From positions 1 to 64,000 of the forward strand of contig JAJRTR010000052.1 in NCBI GenBank assembly GCA_024278215.1: DNA of 64,000 nucleotides. The letters run 5' to 3'. A model generated the notes under the pieces. That model made no database searches. It worked only from the letters and a program-made list of their open reading frames with translations, and was not told the origin of the DNA. Both the position numbers and the translations under genes were made by a program. Positions 4,818 to 64,000 of the stretch are shown here, piece by piece; within the stretch, counting starts at the first letter, position 1, and each line of letters begins with the position of its first letter. This DNA comes from a bacterium (GTDB lineage Bacteria; UBP15; UBA6099; JAJRTR01).

Positions 4818-6523
4818 TTAATCTGTATCCGTTTTATTCTTCATGCCATAACCGCCCTGCCCCGCCCTCCGGTATAAAGGGCTGAGGCGCAGAATGCTTT
4901 CCACCGCGCCGACAGGTGGATCGAACATCTTGAGCGGTGTCGAGCGCAGAGTATTGCGGAGCATCGCCACATCATCCGGGCTGAAACCGCCCGCCAGCCC
5001 CAGCAGGAAGAAATACACCGGTGCCGCCGCCAACATCCAGACAAGGAAAACCGGCCCGTCCGCCGGCAAGACACCCACCGCGAAAGCAGAAACAACCGCT
5101 GCCGCTCCCGGCGCGGCGAAGTATGACACTTTGAACTTCAGCCCGGCATCCTTCCTCACATAATACAACAGTATCAACAGTCCGCACAACATTGAAACAT
5201 CGAAACCCGCCGCAACCGCATAAATACTGCCCGTAAACCGCCCGGCCCCGGCGATCAGTCCCGCTTCGAGCACAAGCACAATCATCAACGCCGCCGCGGG
5301 TATCCCGGGCTTATCTATTCCCATCAGCAGGTTGGCGCACAGCATTATCAACATACTCATGCTCATGCCGAATGCGAGAATTACCGTCAGCGTACCAATC
5401 GCATCCGCCGGAAATGCCGGCCCGCTGAAAAACTCGACTATCTGCCCTGAAAACGCCAGATACACAGTTAATATGAAACCTATCACTATCCCCGCGTATT
5501 TAATTGAAAGATCGTAATAATGCTGCATCAGGTTTTTTCTATTCTGTTTATGGGCTTCGGAAATCGCGGGCAACAGCGCGTAAATCATTCCCACGATAAG
5601 CATCGGGGCCATCGCATAAGTGTAGCCGCTGCTGAAGTAGCCTGCCTGGAGGGCGTTTTCATCGGCGGTCTGACCGAAGAAATGAAAAGTGTGGGCCATG
5701 TTGGACACCATCGGCGTCGGGACAAAAGCCATAATCGTTCCGCCCAGCATCGTCACGGCGGCCAGACGACCGAAAGAAAGCAGTCTGCGCATGTTCTCCG
5801 GCCTGCACCGCCGCCATGCGAACAATGTTTTGACCTTGATGTCCGCACGGTTGACGACAGCCAGTGAAAACAGGTACTGCAATATTGCCGCGACAGCGAC
5901 ACCCGCCGCGCCCGCGAGTACTCCCGCGTCGCCGCCCGCGGTTTCAGGATGCGTTCTCACAACATACACCACCAGTAATGTCGACGAAATCAGCATAGCG
6001 GAAGGGAACGCGAGATTGCACACAGCCAGCATGTCCAGCCGCTGCACACCACCCAGGATGCCGAACATCGCAAAATACATCTGGCGTCCCATAACCGCCG
6101 CGACCATCAGCCAGCCGAGCCTCACCGTCAGCGAATCCATTCGCCCACCAAAATCCCGAGACACACAACCGCCACGGCCAGGAAGACGACGCCCAATGTG
6201 AAGTGGAGTCTTGTGCCCTCGGCCATGACAAGCTCCGCCTCGGCGGGAGCCAATTGATGATCCCGCGAGATGAAAGCCGCCATCGCCTGCGGCACACCGA
6301 ATGAAACCGCTGTCGAAAGTATCCAGAAAACGTCGATGAACGGCTTTGCAATGCCGTATCCGCCAGGCCCGAGAAGCCGCTGCATCAGAATCGTCCACAC
6401 GAATGACAACATGCCCGATACGACAGTGGCCATCATTGTCGCCGAACTGCCCGCGACAAATCGACCTACCTTATCTTCGTCGCTATCGCCGCGTTTGAAA
6501 ACTGATGATGATTTTCCGCTCAT
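4818..6523 (-). pseudogene. MATE/Wzx-like polysaccharide flippase, split by a frameshift near 6150 (pseudogene or sequencing error)
   Basis: N-terminal part 6523->6128 (MQRLLGPGGYG...FGVPQAMAAFISR) continues in another frame (...GRMDSLTVRLGW...LLPAISEAH...); junction GGGATTTTGGTGGG. Confidence 0.75.
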
Positions 6524-6692
6524 AATCCGATGTAAAAGGATAACACATCACGGGCAGCTATGGAACAATGCGCACAATGAATGTCTTCAACCGCGCAGTG
6601 TCCGACCGCGCAGAGCACATTTGTTATTCCTCACCGATTTTACTATATTTCTTTGCAGACCCGAGTCGACAGAATCATCCGGAGGCGGCATC

Positions 6693-7283
6693 ATGAAAAG
6701 CGAAGTGGTAATACTTAAAGAAGGATACATCGAGGTTCTCGGTGATGGTCGCCTGCGCGCCGATGCGACAATATCTCTGATAAAAGGTCCGCGGAATATC
6801 GTCGTCGACACCGGCAATCCCGCATCGGGACAGGCACTATCAGCCGCTCTCGGCGACATGCGTCTTGCGCCCGGCGACATCGACTTCGTTGTCTGCACAC
6901 ACGGCCACACAGACCATACCGGCAACAACGGACTCTTTCCACACGCGACATTTATTGTCGGGCGCGACATCTCGAAAGGCGACATTTTCCGGACTCATGA
7001 TTTCGAGTCGAGACCGCTGAAACTGTGCGAATACGTCGAGGTTATACCGACGGCGGGACACACGAAATATGATGTCTCCGTTAAAGTGGAAACAGCGGAA
7101 GGACTTGTTTATATTGTCGGAGACCTGATCTTCACCAGGCCGGGAAGAGCCGGCGACGAACTATGGTGCTCCTTCGCCGAATTCCCCGAAACGCAGGCGG
7201 CGAACCGCAGGGCGGCACTCGCCCGGGCCGACTACATCGTGCCGGGACATGCAGGCATTTTCAAAGTTTCCGGACAGTGCTGA
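6693..7283 (+). CDS. MBL-fold metallo-hydrolase
   Basis: VVDTG, THGHTDHTGN, TAGHT, VGDL, IVPGH; GGAGG upstream of the ATG at 6693. Confidence 0.9.
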   Translation: MKSEVVILKEGYIEVLGDGRLRADATISLIKGPRNIVVDTGNPASGQALSAALGDMRLAPGDIDFVVCTHGHTDHTGNNGLFPHATFIVGRDISKGDIFRTHDFESRPLKLCEYVEVIPTAGHTKYDVSVKVETAEGLVYIVGDLIFTRPGRAGDELWCSFAEFPETQAANRRAALARADYIVPGHAGIFKVSGQC

Positions 7284-7367
7284 GGAAACGTGCTTGTGGT
7301 GGTTCACAGTTTGTAACGGATATTCTCCCCGAACGAACAGGGTGAAATCGGAAATATGCTGATAAAT

Positions 7368-7495
7368 GAGCCAATTGCAAAATTATGTTCGTAGCGAGGT
7401 CGAGCGAGATTGTTCAGAGCAAGGCGGAGGTGTAAAATCCTCGCAGGCGTACTTGTGGTGTACGTCGAGGACGATTTTGCGCCGACAACGCAGCT
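7368..7495. repeat. Repeat family A, left part
   Basis: GAGCCAATTGCAAAATTATGTTCG...GATTTTGCGCCGACAACGC matches 41175 onward. Confidence 0.85.
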
Positions 7496-7708
7496 AAGGT
7501 AGCGGCATGTCAACAAAGAAAAGATGTAAGATGGGGCAGCGTAAAAACAAGGGCGGGGTACGGTGCCCCCGCCCTACACCTTCATGCGACATTACAAGCC
7601 TGACGTGACAGTAGTAGTAGAATTTATGGGGATACGATCCGGAATTAAAGGTTCAAATTTCAGTCATGCCCCCAAAATTCTCACAACATATTGAAAAACA
7701 CACAAGTT
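7496..7708. repeat. Repeat family B (MITE-like), reverse orientation, one end missing
   Basis: Reverse-complement match to 20026-20212 and 27122-27430; ends AAAAACACACAAGTT. Confidence 0.88.
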
Positions 7709-7711
7709 TAG

Positions 7712-10285
7712 TTACAATTTCACGCTTCTGAGACGGAGCGCGTTGCTGATTACGGAAACCGAACTGAAACTCATTGCCGCCGCGGCGATCATGGGGCTCA
7801 GGAGAATTCCGAAGAACGGATAGAGGATCCCGGCTGCAACGGGTACGCCGAGACTGTTGTATGCGAACGCGAAGAAGAGATTTTGCCTGATGTTGCTCAT
7901 CACGGCCCGACTGAGTCGACGCGCTCTGACGATTCCATTGAGATCGCCCTTGACGAGGGTGACGCCTGCGCTTTCCATGGCAACGTCTGTGCCCGTGCCC
8001 ATAGCGATGCCGACATGGGCCTGTGCCAGGGCTGGAGCATCGTTGACGCCGTCGCCGGCCATGGCTACAATGCGGCCTTCATCCTGGAGTTTTTTCACTA
8101 TTTCGCCTTTGTGATCCGGCAGCACGTCGGCCTCGACCCTGTCTATATTCAATTCGCGTGCCACAGCTTCGGCGGTCTTGCGGTTGTCGCCCGTGAGCAT
8201 CACGATTTCAATTCCATAGCTCCGCAGTTTCCCGATGGCCTCCGGCGTCGTTTTTTTAATGGGATCCGATACACTGAGTATACCGCCCAGTTTCCCGTCG
8301 ACTGCAACGAACATCACTGTCCGGCCTTTGCCTCTGAGGGAATCGACTTTCCGGCTGAGTTCGCCGGTATCCACGTTCAGATCGTCCATATATTTGGAAT
8401 TGCCGAGCGCAACGTAGTGGCCGTCCACTCTGCCCGCTACGCCTTTGCCGGTTTCTGATTGAAAATCGAGTGCATCTTCCAGTTTCACGCCTTTTTCTTT
8501 CACGCCTTCTACGATCGCGGCGGCAAGCGGATGCTCGCTGCCTTTTTCGAGACTGGCGGCGAGGCGCATCAGTTTTTCGTCTTCGAAACCTGATACGGGT
8601 ATGACCTCGGTGAGTTTGGGTTTACCCTCCGTAAGCGTGCCTGTCTTGTCCACGACAATCGTATTGACTTTTTCGAGTATCTCCAGGGCTTCGGCATTCT
8701 TTATAAGGACACCGGCTTTTGCCCCGCGGCCTGTGCCGACCATGATGGACATGGGCGTGGCGAGGCCCAGGGCGCAGGGACACGCAATGATAAGAACCGC
8801 CACGGAGTTCACCAGCGCGAACGCGAACGCGGGCGAAGGACCAAAGAACAGCCACACGAAAAATGTGACAACAGATATGGAAATGACAACCGGGACGAAA
8901 TAGCCCGCGACGATGTCCGCGAGTTTCTGGATGGGCGCACGACTGCGCTGGGCTTCAGCCACCATCTTCACGATCTGCGCGAGCAGCGTGTCGCCGCCCA
9001 CACGTTCGGCCTCCATGAGCAGTCCGCCCGTGCCGTTCACTGTGCCGCCGGTTACCTTATCATTTTCCGTTTTTTCGACCGGGATAGGTTCGCCGGACAC
9101 CATGGACTCGTCCACGGAACTCGTCCCCTCGATCACTTTTCCGTCCACCGGTATTTTTTCGCCGGGTCGCACCCGCAACCTGTCGCCGGGCTGGACTACT
9201 TCCAGCGGCACGTCTTCTTCTTCGCCGTTTTCGCCGACACGGCGCGCGGTTTTCGGCGCGAGGCCAAGCAGTTCTTTGATCGCTTTTCCGGTCTGGCTCC
9301 TGGCGCGCAGTTCGAGAACCTGCCCGAGCAGAACGAGCACGATGATAACCGCTACCGCTTCGAAATACACGGCTACCTGGCCGAACTCACCCCTGAATGA
9401 GTCCGGAAATATATGGGGGAACAGAGTCGCCACCAGGCTGTAGATATAAGCGACGCCGGTGCCGATGCCGATGAGAGTGAACATGTTCAGGCTTTTGTTG
9501 ACAACGGACTTCCAGGCGCGCACAAAAAATATCGAGCCGCACCACAACGTCACCGGCGTCGTAAGGACAAGCTGCAGCCAGATCAGTATGTTGATGTTCA
9601 CGTATTTCGTGGGGTTCAACGCCGGTATCATTTCAGCCATCGTAATGTAGAAAACCGGTATTGTCAGCACGGTAGCCACCCAGAAACGTCGCGCCATGTC
9701 GATTAGTTCCAGATTCTTTTCCTCGACTTCCACTTCACGCGCTTCGAGCGCCATGCCGCATTTGGGGCAATCGCCGGGTGCGTCCCGTACGATTTCCGGA
9801 TGCATCGGGCACGTGTATTCCGTTTTTGTGCTCGGGGCCGGAATGGATTCCGGTTCGAGCGCCATGCCGCACTGCGGGCAGTCGCCGGGGCCTTCCTGCC
9901 GCACGTCGAGGTGCATGGGGCATATATAGATCGTTCCGGGAGGCGCTTCTTCATGCCTGTCGCCGCCGCCGGACAGATATTTCTCCGGATCACCTTCGAA
10001 CTTCTCCTTGCACTTCGGGTTGCAGAAATAGTGCGTTTCACCTTTGTACTCGATCACTGCCGCGGCGTCTTCCTTCTTTATCTTCATGCCGCATACTACA
10101 TCTTTGACCTCGGTGCCGCCTTTTGCGGTCTCTTCTTTTCCTGACAGATATTTCCCCGGATCGGCGACGAACTTCTCTTTGCACTTCGGATTGCAGAAGT
10201 AATAAGTTTCTCCCCCGTGCTCTGTTCTCTCCGCCGCACTTTCCGACTCGATATCCATATTGCAAACCACATCTTTGACCTTCAT
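7712..10285 (-). CDS. copA: Cu(I)/Ag(I)-type P1B ATPase with two YHS domains and two CPMH metal-binding domains
   Basis: [35 protein letters not shown] and MSFSS motifs; 2x DVVC.M...YFCNPKC; 2x Y.CPMH...CP.CGMALE; AAGGAGG upstream. Confidence 0.95.
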
Positions 10286-29900: not shown

Positions 29901-30452
29901 TTATTTATTGTCTTTATATTGTTTATTGATCCGTTCTATTATTTTGTCGGTAATATTGTCACCACCAAATATCACAGCAACTCTATCGAATACATAATCA
30001 TAGCCCTCGGCTTTGGCAATCTCGGCAGAGAATTTTATGACATCGTCCTCAACCTTTTTGAGTTTTTCGTTGCGGGCAGGGATCATATCCTGGCGAAACT
30101 TTTCATTTTCCATGACGATGATGCGTTGAACTTCGCTTTTCTGTTGATCAGTTAATTGCGACTCTTCTGTTACACCATATTTTTCTTTTATGAGATCGCG
30201 AACTTCTGATTCGCGTTGCGTTTTCAATCTGTCAAGTTCTTTGTCCCATCCAAGACTGATGGGATGGTTGTCAATAATTTTGTTGAGATCGATGGTAGCA
30301 ATTTTCAGAGAAGCTGGAGAGGCGACAGTAGAGGTAGCGGGGGGCACGACTTTTTCCGTGGCCGCAGATTCCTGAGAGAGGGAAGCGACTGGAGTGGTTG
30401 AAATGAGGGCAGCCACGAGGAAGGCGGCAGACGTTTTAAATATGTTTTTCAT
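29901..30452 (-). CDS. OmpH/Skp family periplasmic chaperone
   Basis: Signal peptide; KIATIDLNKI; IAKAEGYDYVFD; GDNITDKII; GGAGG upstream. Confidence 0.85.
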   Translation of the reverse strand: MKNIFKTSAAFLVAALISTTPVASLSQESAATEKVVPPATSTVASPASLKIATIDLNKIIDNHPISLGWDKELDRLKTQRESEVRDLIKEKYGVTEESQLTDQQKSEVQRIIVMENEKFRQDMIPARNEKLKKVEDDVIKFSAEIAKAEGYDYVFDRVAVIFGGDNITDKIIERINKQYKDNK

Positions 30453-30541
30453 AGAAATACCTCCGTATAGTGAATGAAGATGAAACATAATTCTGCAATC
30501 AACTCTTACATTATGTTTTTTTACAGCCAAAAAAACAATAA

Positions 30542-30595
30542 TTTAATCGAAAAGAATTCTCCGATGCCGGTATCGGAGAATTCTTTTCGATTAAA
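30542..30595. terminator. Perfect 24-bp-arm inverted repeat at the end of uppP (terminator/processing hairpin)
   Basis: TTTAATCGAAAAGAATTCTCCGAT-GCCGGT-ATCGGAGAATTCTTTTCGATTAAA. Confidence 0.6.
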
Positions 30596-31412
30596 AAAGG
30601 AACAGGGAACCAAGGATCGACACAGTGCCGAGCGCCCAGCAATAGATAGCAAACCATGTGAGCCTGCCTCGTGTCAGCACAGAGATAAGCCATTTCAGCG
30701 CGATCAGTCCGGAAACGAATGCCATTATTGCGCCCGCCAATACGGGTACGGCATTTTCGATCCCGGCGGATAACATGCTGGTTAGTTCAAATACCGATCC
30801 TGCAAGAATCACCGGAACCGCCAGTATGAAGGAGAACCGCGCGGCCTCTTTTCGGTCGACACCGAGGAAAAGAGCGGCGCAAATAGTAGCGCCGGAGCGT
30901 GATATGCCGGGCATAATCGCAAACGCCTGGGCAGTGCCTACAATAAGCGCCCCCGCGAGCCCGAGCGAAGCTGCCTTGCGGTTCGTTTTTTTTACCCTGT
31001 CTGCAAGAAACAGAAAGACACCTGTGATGAGAAGATCGACGCCCGCGATGGAGGCGGAGCCGAGTGCGGCTTCGAACTGATCTTTGAAAAGCAGGAAAGC
31101 GATTCCGGCAGGTAGTGTGCCGATGATTATCCAGAGTGCGAACTTGCGCCCGTCGGTCGCTGTGCCCGACCACGAATCATCCGACACAACATCCCGGCCG
31201 GCGACGGCCTGCAACAGCCCCGCTATGTCGCGACGGAAGAAAATCAAAAGTGCCAGCAGTGTGCCGAAATGCACCATGACATCGAAAAATACCATTTCTT
31301 CCTTAATATTGAGAATGTTCTGGAAGAGAACAAGATGTCCGGAACTGCTTACGGGAAGGAACTCCGTAAGGCCCTGCACAAGGCCGAGGAAAAGCGTTTC
31401 AATAATATTCAT
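30591..31412 (-). CDS. uppP: Undecaprenyl-diphosphate phosphatase
   Basis: QGLTEFLPVSSSGHL, HFGT, PGISRSGAT, AARFSF. Confidence 0.95.
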   Translation of the reverse strand: MNIIETLFLGLVQGLTEFLPVSSSGHLVLFQNILNIKEEMVFFDVMVHFGTLLALLIFFRRDIAGLLQAVAGRDVVSDDSWSGTATDGRKFALWIIIGTLPAGIAFLLFKDQFEAALGSASIAGVDLLITGVFLFLADRVKKTNRKAASLGLAGALIVGTAQAFAIMPGISRSGATICAALFLGVDRKEAARFSFILAVPVILAGSVFELTSMLSAGIENAVPVLAGAIMAFVSGLIALKWLISVLTRGRLTWFAIYCWALGTVSILGSLFLF

Positions 31413-34828: not shown

Positions 34829-35671
34829 TTATCCGTTCATTCCGAGAAGTTTCAATACACCAAACCCCTGGGCGTTGGACTGCGATAGTGCGGAAAGGCT
34901 AACCTGGTTGAGCAACTGTGCCCTGACCTGACTGGAAATAGTCAAAGCGAAGTCCGTGTCTGCAATTCTTGAGTTTGCGGCGGCGTTATTGATGCGCTGT
35001 GTGTAGAGATCGTTTGTGGCGTACTGGAGCCTGTTTTCTGTGACTCCCAGATCGACTCTTGCGTTGGAAACCTGTTCGAGCGCCGTGTCGATTTCATCTA
35101 TTGCGTTCTGGGAATTAGTCACATTGGAAACGTCGGAAGCGGCGAGCCCCATCGAGTTGGATGTGCTTTCGTCGAGTGTCACGTCAAGCTGCTGGTCAGG
35201 CGAATTGTCGGGGCCGACCTGGGCCGCCTGGGTACCATAAGTGCCGTTGAGCAGGTCTTTAGTGTTGAATTGTGCGGCGTTGCCGGATCTTGTAAGTTCG
35301 CTTTTCAACGACTGGTATTCAGCATCGAGATTTGCCCTGTCTGCATCCGTGAGTGTTGCTTCATTTGATGATCTTACGGCGAGGTCCCTCATTCTTACGA
35401 GTACATCCTGCTGGTTTGCCAGGGTCGAGTCCGCCGTGCGGGTAAGATTTACCGTGTCCTGGGCGTTGTAAACAGCCTGATCGATGCCGCTGATCTGTGA
35501 GCGGAACATCTGGGAAATTGCAAGACCGCTGGGGTCTATTCCTGCATTGATCAGCCTGTTGCCGGAAGATAGTTGTGCGATGTTTTTGTTTATTAGTAGT
35601 GAGTTCACTCTCATCGCATTCATCGCGAATAGTGATGAGGTATTGCCTACGCTTCCTATTCCTAAAGCCAT
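34829..35671 (-). CDS. fliC: Flagellin, minimal (280 aa, D0/D1 only)
   Basis: QLSSGNRLINAGIDPSGLAIS, RMRDLAVRSSN, QFNTKDLLNG, QVGPD, RVDLGVTENRL, NSRIADTDFA. Confidence 0.9.
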   Translation of the reverse strand: MALGIGSVGNTSSLFAMNAMRVNSLLINKNIAQLSSGNRLINAGIDPSGLAISQMFRSQISGIDQAVYNAQDTVNLTRTADSTLANQQDVLVRMRDLAVRSSNEATLTDADRANLDAEYQSLKSELTRSGNAAQFNTKDLLNGTYGTQAAQVGPDNSPDQQLDVTLDESTSNSMGLAASDVSNVTNSQNAIDEIDTALEQVSNARVDLGVTENRLQYATNDLYTQRINNAAANSRIADTDFALTISSQVRAQLLNQVSLSALSQSNAQGFGVLKLLGMNG

Positions 35672-35731
35672 TTTTACCACCGTCCCTGTGTGTTTTTTTC
35701 TCCTCCTGAGATAGCTTTCGTCCTGATATAT

Positions 35732-35760
35732 ATTAAAACATAATAAATGGAATATGTCAA
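35732..35760 (-). promoter_or_regulatory. Sigma70-like promoter of the short flagellin gene
   Basis: Minus strand TTGACA-17 nt-TTTAAT with a TG extended -10, about 60 nt upstream of the ATG. Confidence 0.6.
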
Positions 35761-35841
35761 CCCCTGGTTCAGCGGTGCGGAATGATGGGGAGGGTGAGTG
35801 AGTAGAGGCGTGCCTTGTGTAGTTAGTGCTTGCACAGATAG

Positions 35842-35864
35842 CCCGCATTGGTGAAATATGCGGG
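35842..35864. repeat. Repeat family D hairpin (reverse)
   Basis: CCCGCATTGGTGAAATATGCGGG. Confidence 0.8.
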
Positions 35865-36016
35865 TTAACAATTTCCGGTGACAACATCCTGTCGCTTACG
35901 ACGCGATTAAGAACCTGCCGTATGCGTCGCGAAAATGTTATCATAAAAACTATCTGCATTATTACCCGGAATAGTGTAGAATATCCGGCAGCAACCAGAC
36001 AGGAGCAACTTGATAG

Positions 36017-37702: not shown

Positions 37703-39130
37703 TTATTCGTGATAAATGAGTACAGCGTTGGCGATGCCGCGCTCGGTGCCGCCGGGCAGCTGGTTTATGATTTTATCGCCGATCACGATTTCGCTGGAGC
37801 CGCCGCCGTCGAGGTTTATCGCCTGTATCGAGCCGAGCGAAAGAAGGAATTTCGCGAGTTCGTTGAGGGTCATACCTGCACTGCGAGTGTTTCGTCCCTC
37901 GATCACCACAAAGATAATATGATTGTTGTTTGTAATGCCGCAGGCGGTGCGCGGGTTGCGGTCTGCCACGATACCGGATGAAATCGTGAAATCCTCGACA
38001 AGTTTGTCCTGTATCACACTGTCGTGAATCAGCAGTGGCCCGGCGGAGAAACCATATTTTATATTTTTAAGGTCGGGATAGGACGCGAGTGTGACGACGG
38101 CTTTGTCACCTTTCTTTATCTTGTCAAGGAATTCTTTGTGCGAATCGCCGCCGGTAAGAACGAATCCGTCGATGGGTATGGCCGTATCTCCTTTAGAGAA
38201 GCCCGTAACGATGCCGTTGCGAACGATAACGGCGCGTCGGTCGGCGGCGGAGCCTGTGGTTTTCCCGAATTCGGGGGTGAAGATGGAAAGTCGGCCGATG
38301 CCGCCGGGCCAGTTGAGCCTGTGCACGTACTGAAGGTGCTGATCGCCGACTTTGATGCTAAGGCTCGCGTTGGGGCGCATCATCACGGGCACGCCGTCGA
38401 AGTTCAGACCGAAAAAACCGCGATACCTGTCGGGCAGCATGAGTACTTTGCCGCGCACGACGAGCATGTCTATCGGCGCGCCGGAACTCATGTTGAAGTA
38501 GCCGCCGTTTATGCCGATGGCCGCGCCTTTGCGTTTCACCAGCGACGACAGCTTCTCTTTGCCGCCGAGGCGATCGTCCCCGATTGTCACCGCCAGTTTT
38601 ATCTCCGGCCTGTTGAGATCGAGGTCCAGCACATGCGCCGTCATCGGGCCCGCCTCCGTCATAAACTGCTTGTACGTATAATTTATACCCGGCAGGACTT
38701 CCGTTTTTTCTTCCCGCTCTTCGACCTTTGTCGGTATGTATATCAACACATCGTTCGTGCCTGCGACAGGTGTGATTTTATAAGGAAGAATGTATTTCAG
38801 GTCGAGCACGACCCTTACAGTGGTCGGCTCGGGGCGGCCCACACGGATGCTTTTCAGAATCAAATCCGAATAATCCTTTTTGTAGGGTACGAGTTTTGTG
38901 TCGGAGTCTTTGAAATCGATCACGAGCCGCGGCGGGTCTTTGAGCGTAAAGGCGGCGGGAGTGACCGGGGCGGACGAGAACCGGCAGAGAACAGACATGC
39001 CTTCCGCAGTCGATTTGTTGATTACTTCCCGTAGCCACGGCGCTGCCGACGCGGCGGTCGGAAAAACAAGTACAACCAAAAGAGCCAATTGCAAAAGAAA
39101 AGTAATTGTCGCGTAAACTTTTTTTATCAT
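37703..39130 (-). CDS. AMIN domain plus phosphodiester glycosidase (NAGPA-like) protein
   Basis: Signal peptide; FTLKDPPRLVIDF, VRVVLDL; GINGGYF, AGPLL, NPRTACG, NLDGGGS. Confidence 0.88.
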   Translation of the reverse strand: MIKKVYATITFLLQLALLVVLVFPTAASAAPWLREVINKSTAEGMSVLCRFSSAPVTPAAFTLKDPPRLVIDFKDSDTKLVPYKKDYSDLILKSIRVGRPEPTTVRVVLDLKYILPYKITPVAGTNDVLIYIPTKVEEREEKTEVLPGINYTYKQFMTEAGPMTAHVLDLDLNRPEIKLAVTIGDDRLGGKEKLSSLVKRKGAAIGINGGYFNMSSGAPIDMLVVRGKVLMLPDRYRGFFGLNFDGVPVMMRPNASLSIKVGDQHLQYVHRLNWPGGIGRLSIFTPEFGKTTGSAADRRAVIVRNGIVTGFSKGDTAIPIDGFVLTGGDSHKEFLDKIKKGDKAVVTLASYPDLKNIKYGFSAGPLLIHDSVIQDKLVEDFTISSGIVADRNPRTACGITNNNHIIFVVIEGRNTRSAGMTLNELAKFLLSLGSIQAINLDGGGSSEIVIGDKIINQLPGGTERGIANAVLIYHE

Positions 39131-39227
39131 GTTATCTCCGTGTGCAGTCGTACATCTTTTCTTTGTAGACACGACACCAGTGGACAGTTATCCATATTAT
39201 ATGTTCCGTCTTTCCGAACGACCGGTT

Positions 39228-41141
39228 CTACCAGAGATAATCCTGCCAGCGTGTGACCCTGGGGCGTTGCCAGACGGATTGCGGGTTACGGATATTGCCG
39301 CTGATGTCGCACCTGGCATCATAAGTCGCGAGCGACGATTTATCGGAAGCCGCGATATAGGGGCTCAGACCTGCGAACTCGCGTGCCCGTTCCGGCGACA
39401 GGCGGCCTCGCGCCACCAGTTGCAACTTCCCGTCGTATCCGATCGAGCCGTTGGCGTTTACATCGAAACCGTTGCCGCTTACCGTAGCGCCGGCCACCCG
39501 GATGTTGTGCCGAGAGAACTCGATGCCGACTTCCGCAATGTCGAAATCAAGTGTCTGGTATGAATAATCCACATGTCCGCCGCTGTATGGGTTCGTGACA
39601 TAACCGGAGCGCAATTTGATATTCGCGGTTCCGCCTGAAATTCCGCTGTCGCCGAACGAACCGTAAAGTTTTATTTCGCTCTCGAGCATACCGCTGATTT
39701 TGTTCCTGAGTGAAGGGAAGTACGCCGCGATGTATGAAGCATCCGCGGCATCGAGTGTCAGGCCGAGAGAGAAATCGTTGTCCCCGTTGAGCCCGTTGGC
39801 AGGCAGAGCGCCGCCGATGTCCGCCCAGCCGCCGGCGGACCAGCGTTCGGCTTCTATACTGATACCGGTCAGCCTCAGTCGTTCCTTTCGCGTTTTCAGC
39901 CTTGCCGTTATGCTTTCCACCGGTATCTCGACAATCGTGCCTCGCAGACCGCTCGCCCGTCCGAGTGCCGGCGCAGGCACTTTAAGCGTAACGTGCTCGA
40001 TGCTGATGTTCCCGCTGTCCACAACAGGCTGTCCGCCCGTCAGGCTGCCGCTTACTTTCGCGTAGCCCGATATCGTTCCTTCCGGTGCATACTGGAATCC
40101 CAGTGCATTCCTGAAAAGCCTCTGCATACTCAGGTCGGAAAGCACAAAAGAAAAGTTGTACGGCATAGCTTCATCGGAAAAATCGACATTGCCCGAGCCC
40201 GTTATTCTCTCCGTTCCGACGCCCGCCTTAATATCGGTTATGGCCATCGTCTTTCCTACAAGCGAGAATCTCACGTCCACGTCGCGTGTCGAAACATCAC
40301 CGGAGACAATCGGCTCCGTGTAAGAACCTTCGATGATAAACGAAAACCTGCCCACACCGCCTGGGAAATTGGGCGGATTCCGCTGCTTGCGAAAAAACAT
40401 ATCCTTCATGACATCGCCGAGCGTTGTGAAATCGAAGTTTTCGGAATGGCCCTTGAAATGAAAGCCTTCATCGACACATGGAGCGATATTGCCCTTGAGA
40501 GAAACACGCGATGAGAATGATGTCAGCTCGAGGTCCGCGCCTATCTCAAGTTCCGGAGTGAGCCCCATGACGCCGTCGATCACGGCGAGTTCGAGCGAGT
40601 CCTTCCACGCGACGCCCGGCGGTGGTTCTACCAGCACACGGCCCTTTTTCACTGTTATTCGCGCGGGGAATGAATCCAGAGGCGTGGAAGGATCGCATCC
40701 GGTCGCTCTGTCGAGCCAGTACGAGATGTTGTAGCTGCCGTCCGGTTCCTCATAAATCGTCAGGCGCGGATTTTCGAGAACCACTTCGCGAAGTTTCATT
40801 TTTCCCGCTATCAGCGAAGGGATGTCCGCGGCAAGCAGCACTTTGTCCACAGTCAGGTCGGGCAGTTTCAGTGCGCTGGCCGGTGAAGTGACGCGCACAC
40901 CTTCAAGCACGATTCTCAGGCCCGGTGTTACCGATATTCTCTTCACGCGCAGGTCGCACTTTAGCGAATCCCTTAAAAAAGACACTGCTTCGTCCTGTAT
41001 CCGGTGTGTCAGCAGCCATAGAGCGCCGTATATTGTAATGAAGATTATAAAAACGGCAATGAAGGGACCGGGGTGGCGCCGCAGCCAGTCATATACGGCG
41101 TATCCCATCGAGTTCGCCGCCTGTTTTGAACCTTCCGCCAT
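39228..41141 (-). CDS. AsmA-like beta-strand-rich envelope protein
   Basis: N-terminal TM helix; LREVVLENPRLTIYEEPDGSYNI; alternating beta pattern; C-terminal GSIGYDG and ISGNIRNP. Confidence 0.7.
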   Translation of the reverse strand: MAEGSKQAANSMGYAVYDWLRRHPGPFIAVFIIFITIYGALWLLTHRIQDEAVSFLRDSLKCDLRVKRISVTPGLRIVLEGVRVTSPASALKLPDLTVDKVLLAADIPSLIAGKMKLREVVLENPRLTIYEEPDGSYNISYWLDRATGCDPSTPLDSFPARITVKKGRVLVEPPPGVAWKDSLELAVIDGVMGLTPELEIGADLELTSFSSRVSLKGNIAPCVDEGFHFKGHSENFDFTTLGDVMKDMFFRKQRNPPNFPGGVGRFSFIIEGSYTEPIVSGDVSTRDVDVRFSLVGKTMAITDIKAGVGTERITGSGNVDFSDEAMPYNFSFVLSDLSMQRLFRNALGFQYAPEGTISGYAKVSGSLTGGQPVVDSGNISIEHVTLKVPAPALGRASGLRGTIVEIPVESITARLKTRKERLRLTGISIEAERWSAGGWADIGGALPANGLNGDNDFSLGLTLDAADASYIAAYFPSLRNKISGMLESEIKLYGSFGDSGISGGTANIKLRSGYVTNPYSGGHVDYSYQTLDFDIAEVGIEFSRHNIRVAGATVSGNGFDVNANGSIGYDGKLQLVARGRLSPERAREFAGLSPYIAASDKSSLATYDARCDISGNIRNPQSVWQRPRVTRWQDYLW

Positions 41142-42345: not shown

Positions 42346-42771
42346 TCAACCCGCGTTTATCTTGCGGGCGATGCGCGAGAGGGGATGCCCTTTGGCCTTG
42401 ATGTCGAGCCGGTTGAACCAGCCGAATGGAGTTCGCACGGAATCAAAACCCTGCTCTTTAAGGTTCGCATTCACGGAATCCATAATTTCTATCGCTTTCG
42501 CGGGCGCGCCGAGTTTTGCGAAAAGATGCGCGAAGGGATGCACGACGATGTTGCCTACTTTCAGCGCGCGCGCGTGAGAGGCGATTTCATCGGCAGCTTT
42601 CCCGGCGATTATTTCAGGGTTCTTTTCATCTTTACGCTCGACACACGTGTATACGATCAGCGCTTCTTCGACGTATGTCTCGCCGTCGCCGGGGTCCTCG
42701 ACAATGCCGCCGCGACCCTTTTCCGTTATCGTACATTTGAATGAATCCACGTGCCATATAAGCATTCTCAT
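42346..42771 (-). CDS. Stand-alone archaeal-type threonyl-tRNA synthetase editing domain (tRNA-Thr_ED, DTD-like fold)
   Basis: MRMLIWHVD, EEALIVYTCVERKDE, HPFAHL, TPFGW, KGHPLS; AGGAG upstream. Confidence 0.9.
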   Translation of the reverse strand: MRMLIWHVDSFKCTITEKGRGGIVEDPGDGETYVEEALIVYTCVERKDEKNPEIIAGKAADEIASHARALKVGNIVVHPFAHLFAKLGAPAKAIEIMDSVNANLKEQGFDSVRTPFGWFNRLDIKAKGHPLSRIARKINAG

Positions 42772-53697: not shown

Positions 53698-56433
53698 CTA
53701 CTTTTCACCATTTTTCTGCAATTCACTGAGTGTACCGCCGATACCTTGATCGTCCAGCAGTCGCAGGACCCCCTTGCTGATCTGGTCGCCCTGAGCAGCA
53801 ATATAGACATTTGAGTTGATGAGAATGTCTTCCCTTGTCATTTCGGTAAGGTTCCTGGCGAAATCGGCGTCTTCGATGCGACTGTTGGCTGCCATGAGGT
53901 TTATCTTCTCGACGCTGAGTTCGTCCATAACATGATAAAGTTTTCTCTCTTCGATGCCCATCGCCGCCCTGAGGTCGGACACATTATTGATGGCGTCATT
54001 GAATTTTTTGATGGGGTCCATTCCGGTCTGTATCATAAGAGAGTCTATCTGCGGGGAAACCGAAGGGGTATAGCTGTAGACATCGGGAGCCACCACAAGA
54101 TTAGCCGGCGTCGAGACCATAGTGCCGCGCACCTGTACATAAGGTTTCCCGGCGGGTGTCGTGAAGTCTGTCACACCGGAGCCGGCGGTTATAAGCTGGT
54201 CTGTCCAGTTGATGCCGTCGGAGCTTGCCCATACGTCGAATCCTGTTACTGCGTCATTGGTAACGCCGACAATACTTGCATCTATATTATCACCCACATA
54301 AGCGGGGTTGGTTCTGTAGGAACCGTTCGGCAAGTATTCGAAGAACCTGTGGCCGGTAATTTCATTGTTCCAGCCGGGATTGCTGTCAAGACTGTCCGCG
54401 ATCTGGGTTGTACCGTAGAAAATATCCATCTCATTTACGGGGCCGCCGTCTGTCCTGCCGCCGCCCATTACACGTTCGACATTCGACATGCGGAATGACG
54501 CATCCGGCTGTGCATTGAATTTAATAGTGAATCCATCCATCTGTCCGCCGGTTGCCATGTCGCAGTAAACTTCTTCATAAGCGCCGGCCTGCGTTATATC
54601 CGAGTTCGGTATCGAATCATAATTAGTCCTGCTTCCGGTTACTCCATAAACGCCGTCCCGGTATCCGGACAACCCGGCACTTAATGCCGGTTCTCCGACA
54701 CTATCTCCCTGGTCGCCGGTCCAGTCTGTACTGAGCGTGGTTATCTCGTCGATAGTGACAGCGCCGCTGCCGTCGAATACGGAAAAGTATGATTGCCATA
54801 TCACACTGCCCAGCGCGCCCCCGCCCCAGTACCTGACGGAAACTGTATAATCGATCGAACCGTCCGTCTGTGGATTCGCCGTGTTGACACTTATAACAAT
54901 GGAGTGTGTATTCGCTTTATCGGGAGAACTTGTTGTTTTTACATCGGTGCCGAGTTGCAGATATCCAGGGTTTCCGCTTGGATCGACATCGACCATGTTG
55001 TTGAGACTGCTCATCCACTCCTGTTGCGTGTCGATCAGGAGTGCTGCTCCGGTCCGGTCCGTCAGCTTGAGATTCGAGAGCCCCAGTGCATTCGCGTGCA
55101 GATTCAGGGCCGAGAGGTTGTCTCTCCAATTATCGCCGTTATCTGAGCCAATCTGGATCGAACCGGGGTCCGACAACTGGAGTGAAAGGTCGGTGACGGC
55201 CGGTGTGCCGTACTGTACTCCGTTGCTGTTAAGCGTAATCTCGGCCCGCAGGTATCGCTGATTGTAGTCAAAAGTAGCGCCGTTGTCGGTTATGGGAAGG
55301 GCGGTCCAGTCGCCGGGGAAAGCGGGATTGCCCGTCGCGCTTTCGTAAAGAACGATCTGCGCGCCCTGTCCGCCGGTGATAATGGAGTTATAGTTGAGAA
55401 CCGCCTGTCCGCCTGATGTTCTCGTGTCGATAGGGGCGGTGTAATAGGATGCGGGGTTGGCAGCGATGTCTGTGAAATATTGCGAATAGAAAACCGCCGG
55501 TCTGGTGTCGCCAAGGAGCGTGGAGCCGAAATACATTGCTACCGGTTCATTGTTTCTGTTTGTAAGCTGAAGGTCCCATTTCGAGCCGACATCGACCTCT
55601 ATGTCGACAGAAGCGAGTGTGCTGAAACTATTGGTGGCGGTTCTGTCGAAGGTAATTGTATTGCCTGCAATTACACAATTGCTGGCGTTCGAGAGGTTTG
55701 CTCCCGCTTCGAAAGTCAGCGTTCCCTTCAACTGGCCGGTACCACCGACAGTCTCACCACCGATATAGAGTCTTGCGGTATATTTTCCTGTTGTCGGGTC
55801 GTAGCCGCTGCCGGGGGCGCTGCCGTCTACCCATATATCCATCGTGTCGTCATTTATGTCGCCTATCGGATTGTTCCAGTGTGCCTGTGTGTTCCAGTCC
55901 TGATATGCGAGCTGCACATTGCCGGGTGCGCTGTTCAGGTCTATTAAAGACGAGTCGTAAACAGCGTTGGCGGACGCCCAGTCGGCCTGGGAGTCGAAAG
56001 TATATTGTTGGCCTGTCGCTCCGCTCAGCAGTTGTTTGCTGTTGAATGTAACCGTTTCGGAAAGCCTGTCGATTTCGGCGAGGATGGAATCGACTTCGTC
56101 CTGCATGTCCTGTATGTCCGACGAGGATAGAGTGGCTTCGTTGGATGCCCTTACGGCCAGATCGCGGCCCCGCTGCAACAGGCTGTGTATCTCTTTCATG
56201 CCGCCTTCCGCCGTCTGGATCATGGATAAAGCGTCCTGCGTGTTCTGTATCGCTGTGTTTAATCCGCCTATGGTGGCACGCAGATTCGAGGATATGGCTA
56301 TTCCGTGCGGGTCGTCCGCACCGCGGTTTATCCTTAGCCCCGACGAAAGTCTTTCCTTTATCGTTCCTGTTTTAGTGAAATGAGCTCTTCTGTCGTTATT
56401 ATTGACCATGGCCCAAAGACTATTGATTTCCAT
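53698..56433 (-). CDS. Large flagellin (911 aa) with two inserted beta-rich modules
   Basis: ERLSSGLRINRGADDPHGIAIS, IQTAEGG, TFNSKQLLSG; C-terminal LRAAMG, NSRIEDADFA. Confidence 0.9.
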   Translation of the reverse strand: MEINSLWAMVNNNDRRAHFTKTGTIKERLSSGLRINRGADDPHGIAISSNLRATIGGLNTAIQNTQDALSMIQTAEGGMKEIHSLLQRGRDLAVRASNEATLSSSDIQDMQDEVDSILAEIDRLSETVTFNSKQLLSGATGQQYTFDSQADWASANAVYDSSLIDLNSAPGNVQLAYQDWNTQAHWNNPIGDINDDTMDIWVDGSAPGSGYDPTTGKYTARLYIGGETVGGTGQLKGTLTFEAGANLSNASNCVIAGNTITFDRTATNSFSTLASVDIEVDVGSKWDLQLTNRNNEPVAMYFGSTLLGDTRPAVFYSQYFTDIAANPASYYTAPIDTRTSGGQAVLNYNSIITGGQGAQIVLYESATGNPAFPGDWTALPITDNGATFDYNQRYLRAEITLNSNGVQYGTPAVTDLSLQLSDPGSIQIGSDNGDNWRDNLSALNLHANALGLSNLKLTDRTGAALLIDTQQEWMSSLNNMVDVDPSGNPGYLQLGTDVKTTSSPDKANTHSIVISVNTANPQTDGSIDYTVSVRYWGGGALGSVIWQSYFSVFDGSGAVTIDEITTLSTDWTGDQGDSVGEPALSAGLSGYRDGVYGVTGSRTNYDSIPNSDITQAGAYEEVYCDMATGGQMDGFTIKFNAQPDASFRMSNVERVMGGGRTDGGPVNEMDIFYGTTQIADSLDSNPGWNNEITGHRFFEYLPNGSYRTNPAYVGDNIDASIVGVTNDAVTGFDVWASSDGINWTDQLITAGSGVTDFTTPAGKPYVQVRGTMVSTPANLVVAPDVYSYTPSVSPQIDSLMIQTGMDPIKKFNDAINNVSDLRAAMGIEERKLYHVMDELSVEKINLMAANSRIEDADFARNLTEMTREDILINSNVYIAAQGDQISKGVLRLLDDQGIGGTLSELQKNGEK

Positions 56434-60958: not shown

Positions 60959-61408
60959 TACCGGGGCCATGACCGGAACCGGTGTGGACGAGTGTGAGTG
61001 CGATGACAGCGGGAACGATGAAACGACCGATGTTTTGTCCCGATTGAAGTGCCCATCAACGAGTGTGAGTGCAATGACAGCTGGAACGATGAAACTGCGT
61101 GTGACGTGCTCAAACCGCATTTGTTTGGGCACGAAAATGCGGCTTTTGGGTTCCGGCTGCGCCGGGTCAGGCTTACCCCGCATATTTCACCAATGCGGGC
61201 TATGTCCAATTGCAGCCGACCGCAGCAGAATCAGACTTTTGCAAATGGCTCTATTGAACGAATGATGAATGCAATCTATAATGTGTTATTATTGAACTTG
61301 TGCGTTCAACATGTTTATTACGCATAAGCAGGAGATTCTTCATGTCCGTCTCGGAATGACACACTTCCATCACGCAGGTGGTAATGCTGAAAGAAGTGAA
61401 GCATCTCG
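60959..61408. repeat. Composite repeat cluster: F (60959-61171), D (61177-61199), A right end (61207-61251), E-like REP (about 61331-61408)
   Basis: Each part matches copies elsewhere in the window; F has a 37-bp internal direct repeat ACGAGTGTGAGTGCRATGACAGCKGGAACGATGAAAC. Confidence 0.8.
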
Positions 61409-62228: not shown

Positions 62229-62770
62229 GGGCCGCGAAGGAATATGACCGGAGTCCCCCTTCGGCTCTTTCCATCTCATGCGGCGGCTCCGCGCGCAACA
62301 CATTTTTCGTTCTCCGTTCATTATCAAATTCGGCGGCAGCACTTCTTTATGTCCCAATTGCTTCAATTAAACAGATAAATGTATTACCATAGTGGCTGAA
62401 CGAAAACCCTAAAAGGACTATGGATAAAGGAATAATTGGCGAAAAGAGCAAACGAAGATCGGCAGAAAATATCAGGTACAAATACGAGGAAGACAGTTGT
62501 AATCGCATGTAAGCGATGTATGGCGTTTGAAAAAACGCAATCTTCGCAATAAAATCTTGAAAAGTGGTTGAGCGAAAAACTGATCCGTTAAGCCGGAATG
62601 TGTGAAAAGTGTTCGATATCGAGGCAGACGAAGGAGGCAATGCAACGCATTGTTGACTGAGGATAACGAAGATAGCGGGCAATTTGCGCACATCCCGGCA
62701 GGAGCAGGTTTCCGTTCAACCACTACCATAAATATCTGGCGACAAAATACAGGATTGCGAAGGCTGAACT

Positions 62771-64000
62771 ATGAGACTTTTGATGATACATTCAAATCCG
62801 TTTTCATTCGAGATTACGGACAAAACAAAGTTCGCGGAAGAGATAGTGCCGCCGGTTGTGGACAGGGCTGAAGTGGATAATGCGCTCGTGGTTTTTGCCG
62901 CTGTCGAGCAGCATGATGCCGTCGAGCAGGAAAAAGTTTGCGGGAAAGCTTTCGCTGAAATAAAAAAGACATACGAGAACGTGGGTGCGTCGATAATCGC
63001 TCTGTATCCATATTCACATCTTTCCAACCGGCTCGCGCCGCCCGAAGTGTCACTGCGCCTGTTGAAAAATCTGCGTGGCCTTCTGGAAGACATGCCGCTG
63101 GTTCAGTGTCCGTTCGGATGGTATAAAAAATTCAGCCTCAACGGGATCGGGCACCCTGTGAGCGAATCGAGCAGGGTGATAGAGATCGACGGTCGCCCGC
63201 GGGAACAGAAAGTTATGGGCCGTGGCCGCGAACATCCTGTCGCCGCCATGAACCAGCAGTTCCGCGAGGTCTTCCTCGAACTCGGCCTCGACGAAATGAT
63301 CAATCCGGCGATTATCGACGACTTCCACATCTACAAACAGTACGGCCCGGAAGCGCCACTTATCCTCGACAGGGTTTTCTATATCGCGGGCCTCGACCGG
63401 GCTGATATCGGACTTGGCAAAAGCAAACTCGCAATAATAAATAAAATAGTCCCCGGATTCGACAAAGAGGAACAACTGCAAGCCCTTATGCGCGAATATA
63501 AGGAAGCTCTGATCGAGGCCGACGATTTTCTCGAAGAATTTGCCCTCAGGCTGAAAATCAGCGGCGAACAGGCCGGCGAAATCCTCGAAAAAGCATTCCC
63601 CGAATTCAGGGAATTGACGCCTGTTCCCATGACGCGCACACTGCGCTCGCACATGACAAGCAACTGGTTTCCCGTGCTCCAGCGCATGAGAACTCGATCA
63701 ACGCTGCCCGTGAAACTCTTCTCCGTGGGGTCCCGTTTCAGACGCGAGCAGCGCCAGGATGCGCAACATCTCTACGAAAGCACATCCGCGTCAATTGTTG
63801 TCATGGACAACAATGTTACGATGGAAGACGGCAAAAAGCTGTCATACGACATCCTGAAAAAAATGGGGTTCAAGCGCTGCAAATTCGTAAAGAAAAAAGT
63901 CGCCAGCCGCTACTACGATCCGGAAACGGACACAGAGATATTCGTAAATTATAAAGGAGCACAGATCGAGGTCGGTAATCTTGGCTTCTACGCGCCGGAA
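62771..64000 (+). CDS. sepS: O-phosphoseryl-tRNA(Cys) synthetase (SepRS) with an N-terminal archaeal ThrRS-type editing domain; 3' end outside the window
   Basis: Manual translation gives 410 codons with no stop. Residues 1 to ~137: MRLLMIHS, LVVFAAVE, YPYSHLS, PFGWYKKF, GHPVSESSR. Then GREHPV, EMINPAII, YKQYGPEAPLILDRVFYIAGL, FPEF, TLRSHMTSNWF, KLFSVGSRFRREQRQDAQHL, SAS, SRYY. Confidence 0.92.
   Translation, partial: MRLLMIHSNPFSFEITDKTKFAEEIVPPVVDRAEVDNALVVFAAVEQHDAVEQEKVCGKAFAEIKKTYENVGASIIALYPYSHLSNRLAPPEVSLRLLKNLRGLLEDMPLVQCPFGWYKKFSLNGIGHPVSESSRVIEIDGRPREQKVMGRGREHPVAAMNQQFREVFLELGLDEMINPAIIDDFHIYKQYGPEAPLILDRVFYIAGLDRADIGLGKSKLAIINKIVPGFDKEEQLQALMREYKEALIEADDFLEEFALRLKISGEQAGEILEKAFPEFRELTPVPMTRTLRSHMTSNWFPVLQRMRTRSTLPVKLFSVGSRFRREQRQDAQHLYESTSASIVVMDNNVTMEDGKKLSYDILKKMGFKRCKFVKKKVASRYYDPETDTEIFVNYKGAQIEVGNLGFYAPE

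Follow-up and report, generated by a model that had tools for sequence, protein, structure and literature searches.

A predicted bacterial SepRS with a fused putative proofreading domain in a diderm, flagellated host

The closest described systems and the SepRS gene

The closest described counterpart of the gene studied here is found in bacterium ADurb.Bin236, for which the discussion section of Mukai 2017 (PMC5424206) describes a non-canonical SepRS fused to an editing domain and suggests cis or trans editing of Ser-tRNA-Cys arising from dephosphorylation. Mukai 2022 (PMC8762117, sections 3.1 and 3.2) later described SepRS from ‘Desantisbacteria-like bacteria’ and from a Nitrospirae MAG; three fused variants were counted there, and the fused domain was modelled as a homodimer near the active sites. 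In the portions of the two papers that deal with the fusion, the enzyme is modelled only and hydrolysis of Ser-tRNA-Cys is put forward as a hypothesis (PMC5424206, PMC8762117). The initial annotation of this DNA had named bacterial SepRS from Parcubacteria and Chloroflexi only, and had read the present gene as SepRS in an additional bacterial lineage. The first statement is outdated in view of the cases of 2017 and 2022 (PMC8762117), and the second does not stand, given that ADurb.Bin236 belongs to the same GTDB order as the host and was reported with such a SepRS in 2017 (PMC5424206). ADurb.Bin236 corresponds to genome G014 of our set (its locus L017, MWCD01000035.1, contains locus L056, G014:C35) and falls within family f4 of the order, with the host in family f1.

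The window, a stretch of 64,000 nt, contains the first 410 codons of the SepRS gene (62771–64000), with the remaining 684 nt lying past the window end. The complete open reading frame encodes 637 aa and extends from an ATG at 62771 to base 64684 of the contig (C22, 66,302 nt), with a GAAGG stretch 8–12 nt 5’ of the start codon. Within the window, 63221–64000 was matched to positions 43–305 of TIGR00470 (sepS) with 266 bits (E 4e-79), and over the contig (C22:63221-64678) the match extended to positions 43–531 of 533 with 440.7 bits (E 5.5e-132), which passes the curated whole-protein cut-off of 380.65 bits for this SepRS equivalog model. The SepRS previously placed at 63220–64000 is thus upheld by the model, although the gene is larger than these coordinates and its most unusual feature, an editing domain fused at residues 1–137, was absent from the initial annotation.

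A class II PheRS-alpha-like core (PF01409, E 4.5e-27) and a C-terminal anticodon-binding domain were both found in the protein, the latter by alignment to the M. jannaschii SepRS structure 2du7, which was the best PDB match to the core (residues 54–544, E 2.9e-109). The core, insertion and anticodon-binding domains align with those of the archaeal SepRS enzymes from M. jannaschii (2du7/5x6c), A. fulgidus (2du3) and M. maripaludis (2odr) with E values of 1e-94 to 1e-109; unlike these, the host enzyme is without their first 40–55 residues and has the editing domain instead. Within the HMMER alignment to 2du7, the TLRSHMTS and SAS stretches are identical to those of M. jannaschii SepRS, and we take their role to be phosphoserine binding. 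An Rfam scan of 61721–66178 at E up to 0.1 gave no match, and a scan for promoters and terminators gave no excess over shuffled sequence (3 vs 3.1 and 3 vs 4.2). Judged from its sequence, the gene is a genuine, intact and host-integrated SepRS with a fused, predicted proofreading domain.

In its arrangement the gene resembles that of ADurb.Bin236 (OQA87054.1), in which tRNA-Thr_ED is likewise followed by a short linker and the SepRS core, and SepCysSn and SepCysS form a separate operon. The host differs in belonging to another family of the order, in having a protein only 64% identical, and in also possessing a free-standing paralogue of the editing domain along with a second gene resembling SepCysS. 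The fusion is therefore already in print for a close relative, and the present gene adds a further example from a different family.

The fused editing domain

At the N-terminus of the SepRS open reading frame, residues 1–137 (62771–63181, plus strand) constitute an editing domain of the kind found in archaeal ThrRS, tRNA-Thr_ED (PF08915), matched over positions 1–137 of 137 with 128 bits against a cut-off of 30.2 (E 3.1e-37). The domain replaces the canonical SepRS extension and is joined to the core, which starts at residue 151, by a short linker of about 13–14 residues (63182–63220, plus strand) that spans the gap between the PF08915 and TIGR00470 matches and is variable in alignment A1. The window part of the SepRS catalytic core (TIGR00470) follows at 63221–64000 on the plus strand, and the anticodon-binding part continues to contig base 64684. 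The same substitution of an N-terminal serine-editing domain for the canonical extension, with a conserved editing motif, is described in section 3.2.2 of Mukai 2022 (PMC8762117), and the host protein differs from the fused SepRS of HyVt-268 in sharing 44% identity with it and in belonging to another clade.

The best PDB match to the fused domain was an editing domain, that of M. jannaschii ThrRS (4rrf, E 8.8e-25), and end-to-end alignments were obtained with 4rrf, 2hl1 and 1y2q (M. jannaschii and P. abyssi ThrRS) at E values of 1e-23 to 1e-25, with the YPYxHLS, PFGWYK and GHPxSE motifs the same in all. Fold family and motifs are thus shared with the archaeal ThrRS editing domain, and also with the stand-alone tRNA-Thr-ED genes found beside clade VII SepCysS in Euryarchaeota; unlike in archaeal ThrRS, the host domain is attached to SepRS. 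Conservation by position was counted in 40 fused homologues, 7 of 47 rows having been dropped for short domain envelopes. W117 is kept in all 40 proteins, H83 and H128 in 39 each, and Y118, K119 and E132 in 38 each. In line with published structural work on the P. abyssi ThrRS, we take these six to be editing-site positions. The constraint on them speaks for an active hydrolase rather than a module of structural function only, and cis-editing of Ser-tRNA-Cys by the fused domain, an idea of Mukai et al. 2017 and 2022, is on balance the role that we would assign to it.

A different reading would make the fused domain a non-hydrolytic module for tRNA docking or oligomerisation, which reads the U73 acceptor end or dimerises and has replaced the N-terminal extension in that capacity. 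In methanogens, the N-terminal extension of SepRS binds SepCysE. Consistent with a docking module, the editing domain sits exactly at the missing extension (the core is aligned from model position 43, or 2du7 residue 54), and the same N-terminal site is occupied by SepCysS in two database relatives, P0044 and P0064, and by nothing in several clusters, suggesting a general docking port. Mukai 2022 adds, in the part concerned with the isolated editing domain, that this domain can tell tRNAs apart through U73 (PMC8762117). A purely structural role, however, needs none of the editing-site positions, whereas these are kept in 38–40 of the 40 fused proteins across clades at 40–48% identity, and a module without hydrolytic activity consequently appears unlikely.

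In this genome SepRS would not be the sole source of serine editing on tRNA, as a ThrRS of the archaeal type that has an editing domain of its own, and a free-standing paralogue, are also encoded. The three editing domains share 29–32% identity among themselves, the SepRS-fused domain being 31.5% identical to that of ThrRS and 29.5% identical to the free-standing protein. The latter is a 141-aa tRNA-Thr_ED paralogue encoded apart from the SepRS gene (42346–42771, minus strand; PF08915 E 3.2e-36). All four tRNA-Gly genes of the genome carry U73, and stand-alone editing-domain proteins are common in bacteria with U73 tRNA-Gly, a point of relevance to the reason put forward in 2022 for the SepRS fusion in bacteria.

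The free-standing protein belongs to a large bacterial family, in which 919 of 949 candidate clusters matched at E ≤ 1e-5, with names that include Chloroflexota, Bacillota, Binatia and others. Among the top 120 clusters of this family, F and N stand in place of Y and K (in 120 and 118 of 120, respectively) and R in place of E (120 of 120), and the family looks like one of distinct, probably uncharacterised specificity. The archaeal-type ThrRS with an N-terminal editing domain lies on another contig of the host genome, designated G000 (G000:C196:16758-18653, minus strand; NF003068, 601.8 bits), and the three tRNA-Thr genes found (C193, C199) all have U73. ThrRS-sized frames carrying tRNA-Thr_ED are present in most genomes of the host phylum.

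Partner genes and proposed function

The companion genes to which the initial annotation had drawn attention were searched for in the whole genome. SepCysS is present on contig C65 with 516.8 bits against a cut-off of 365.25, and its start is overlapped by a candidate SepCysSn of 65 aa with 54% identity to the sequence that lies upstream of the ADurb.Bin236 SepCysS, the location at which SepCysSn was reported in that bacterium (PMC5424206). Two tRNA-Cys(GCA) genes were found, on contigs C6 and C135, both with U73 and A37; archaeal SepRS systems differ in having G37. SepRS, SepCysS and tRNA-Cys with a GCA anticodon and U73 are therefore all encoded in the same genome. CysRS (G000:C16:13333-14715; TIGR00435, 411 bits) and CysK (C136, 480 bits, with a CysE-like neighbour at 165 bits, below cut-off) were also found, and no match to SelA was obtained in the host genome, nor was tRNA-Sec among the 47 tRNAs found there. 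Given the presence of CysRS and CysK, the tRNA-dependent pathway is a second and not the sole route to cysteine.

On TIGR00435, the host CysRS falls about 100 bits short of the CysRS of relatives in the phylum (484–533 bits, full-length matches) and may be a divergent or replaced copy. A 94-nt call of tRNA-Arg(CCG) near SepCysS (C65:11822-11915) contains many mismatched pairs and was set aside as a probable false call.

The whole explanation that we consider probable is that of a working, vertically inherited SepRS whose N-terminal extension has been swapped for an archaeal ThrRS-type serine-editing domain. Its SepRS core would charge tRNA-Cys (GCA, U73) with phosphoserine, and the SepCysSn-SepCysS pair encoded on another contig would turn the resulting Sep-tRNA-Cys into Cys-tRNA-Cys. 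The fused domain would act as a proofreading hydrolase in cis, clearing Ser-tRNA-Cys, whether it stems from mis-charging or from a lost phosphate, before serine enters cysteine codons. Charging of tRNA-Cys with phosphoserine is the step predicted with most assurance and very probably takes place. What was observed directly is the domain architecture, the partner genes and tRNAs, the conservation of residues and the distribution among genomes.

The alternative that substrate or role has changed, such that the enzyme charges something other than phosphoserine or that SepRS and SepCysS mainly make free or protein-bound sulfur compounds rather than supplying translation, draws on the redundancy of the system with CysRS and CysK and on its loss in the nearest relative, genome G007. 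Degenerate SepRS-like proteins from other sources are moreover described in Mukai 2022 (PMC8762117). A second SepCysS-like gene of 397 aa on contig C121 (367.7 bits on the subfamily model; 338.6 bits on the equivalog model, below cut-off) points in the same direction, lying as it does in a sulfur-relay cluster with ThrC-, TusA- and ThiF-like genes. The SepRS equivalog cut-off is passed, however, and the whole core aligns with solved SepRS structures. A full-scoring SepCysS is also present together with SepCysSn, as are tRNA-Cys genes with the expected anticodon and discriminator base, and a changed substrate or role is accordingly regarded as quite improbable.

The cluster on contig C121 (C121:14269-18405, L004) comprises the SepCysS-like gene, a ThrC-like gene, a TusA/YedF-like sulfur carrier, a 252-aa protein and a ThiF/MoeB-like gene, and may represent a sulfur-relay or thio-amino-acid pathway.

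Host continuity, descent and meaning

The host assembly comprises 4.55 Mb in 207 contigs, and is 95% complete with 1.3% contamination. The window encodes OmpH/Skp (29901–30530), BacA/UppP (30591–31412), flagellins (34829–35959 and 53698–56433) and an AMIN-domain protein (37703–39172), together with weakly matched AsmA/YhdP-like (39228–41141) and BamB-like/TPR (895–3255) proteins, and CheR and CheD are encoded in the window as well. A single frame on another contig was matched as a BamA-like gene (208 and 82 bits), and control matches to the model were confined to diderms. The host is a diderm, flagellated bacterium, as the initial annotation had concluded from the window genes.

Continuity of the contig around the SepRS gene was assessed from dispersed repeats and base composition. 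A dense repeat block lies upstream at 60977–61272 (up to 285 overlapping matches on many contigs by blastn against the whole genome), and a further repeat stretch directly upstream at 62388–62726 (up to 18 overlapping blastn matches, on other contigs) stops 45 nt before the SepRS start codon. Repeats resume downstream at C22:65058-65226 (up to 126 blastn matches) and in the contig tail at C22:65534-66302 (blastn against the whole genome). The presence of host repeats reported earlier was thereby borne out, whereas their reach, given previously as about 61.4 kb, is in fact to 62726 and again at 65058–65226. The GC content of the SepRS gene is 0.515 against 0.514 for the genome, and the correlation between its tetranucleotide profile and the genome mean (r = 0.903) is above that of 99.5% of 1500 random segments of equal size. 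With genome-typical repeats on both sides and host-like tetranucleotides, the gene is not a chimeric insert, and the fully host-like composition implies that any transfer was ancient. Both agree with the earlier view of a gene settled into the genome and with the lack of a chimeric join upstream of 62771. Although the SepRS gene lies 1.6 kb from the contig end and is preceded by an 800-nt non-coding stretch of lower GC, a mis-joined contig, or contamination by archaeal or other bacterial DNA, is highly improbable given the repeats common to many contigs on both sides, the genome-matched composition, the resemblance of the GC drop at 62.0–62.8 kb to other intergenic dips of the window, and the grouping of the protein with those of eight other genomes of the phylum.

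When the flanking GT2, methyltransferase and bifunctional nuclease genes were searched by tblastn against the SepRS loci of relatives, only two weak, paralogue-level matches were returned. The SepRS neighbourhood is therefore not conserved in relatives, and synteny is no evidence for or against continuity. The host genome is full of short dispersed repeats, about 90–130 nt long, with more than 100 copies on many contigs and no Rfam match, and the repeat family at 65085–65214 also occurs just 5’ of SepRS in a genome from a different family of the order (L013:5717-5871).

The GTDB phylum of the host consists of 13 species, all of one order, and SepRS scores above cut-off in 9 of the 13. SepCysS-type genes are present in 10 of the 13 genomes and in eight of the nine SepRS-positive ones, the exception being G011 (73% complete), and two genomes (G006 and G017) have SepCysS without SepRS. 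CysRS and the editing-domain family are each found in 12 of 13. G007 (94% complete), the closest relative of the host and the sole other member of its family, lacks both SepRS and SepCysS, which together with the near-universal CysRS indicates that the SepRS system is dispensable and can be lost.

A scan of one genome per species returned 30 related loci, and the best relatives of the host SepRS were those of AMR_MDS_2097 (68% identity) and ADurb.Bin236 (64%). A SepRS-core tree was built with FastTree from 99 rows after removal of the editing domain, leaving out every second unfused database row and the locus L040, which holds a core fragment only. Within this tree, the host SepRS falls in a clade of 26 rows with a support of 100, all of them fused, that includes every SepRS of the phylum, among them that of ADurb.Bin236; amino-acid identity is 58–81% inside the clade and at most 48% outside it. 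An RpoB tree of 10 of the 13 genomes, in which f3 (G008 and G009) stands apart, the host pairs with G007 and f4 holds together, is consistent with the SepRS tree and thus supports vertical descent. Inheritance of SepRS from the ancestor of the order fits these phylogenies, and a recent transfer into the host genome does not.

Beyond the host phylum the picture is more mixed. The editing domain is present in 42 of the nearest 120 clusters at 90% identity, compared with the three variants counted in 2022. Fused forms are interleaved with forms without an N-terminal addition and with two SepCysS-SepRS clusters, and the SepRS-core tree requires at least four changes of the label ‘fused’ on well-supported branches. 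One origin followed by losses, or several origins, are both possible histories on this topology.

The two SepCysS-SepRS clusters are represented by P0044 (903 aa) and P0064 (911 aa), database relatives of the host SepRS in which both enzymes form a single chain. Their halves pass the curated cut-offs for SepCysS (404.8 and 383.6 bits) and SepRS (489.5 and 446.6 bits), and both nest among editing-domain-fused clades in the SepRS-core tree. No description of a single-chain SepCysS-SepRS was found in the literature searched, the matching phrases in two Mukai papers concerning other fusions. The locus L040 (CP070770.1, Deltaproteobacteria bacterium bin23), at 5896–9366, has tRNA-Thr_ED, about 100 residues of SepRS core and a PilY1-like propeller in one frame, and represents one of two things, a SepRS gene that has been truncated and rearranged or a misassembly, the record being labelled as a chromosome.

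A broader and more tentative proposal is that the N-terminus of bacterial SepRS serves as a modular port. The editing-domain form would be ancestral and vertically inherited in the whole candidate phylum and would extend to about a third of the nearest clusters, and P0044 and P0064, with a complete SepCysS at the same site, would provide a single chain for both steps. Editing domain and SepCysS might then be alternative ways of handling the labile Sep-tRNA-Cys end, with the fused domain proofreading Ser-tRNA-Cys.

SepRS is a tool for putting phosphoserine into proteins, and a natural SepRS with a built-in serine-clearing domain could be of interest to the field of phosphoserine incorporation, if the activity is real. 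For the biology of the family, the finding of SepRS in a new bacterial lineage would by itself add little, with both the lineage and the fusion in print. What the genome gives is context for the idea that SepRS may carry a proofreading domain of its own: the fusion is maintained throughout a candidate phylum and occurs in several other clades, with clearly constrained editing-site residues, and the fused SepRS is found alongside CysRS and CysK and is open to loss. In addition, the SepCysSn-SepCysS partner and the two tRNA-Cys genes are available from the same genome, which is 95% complete.
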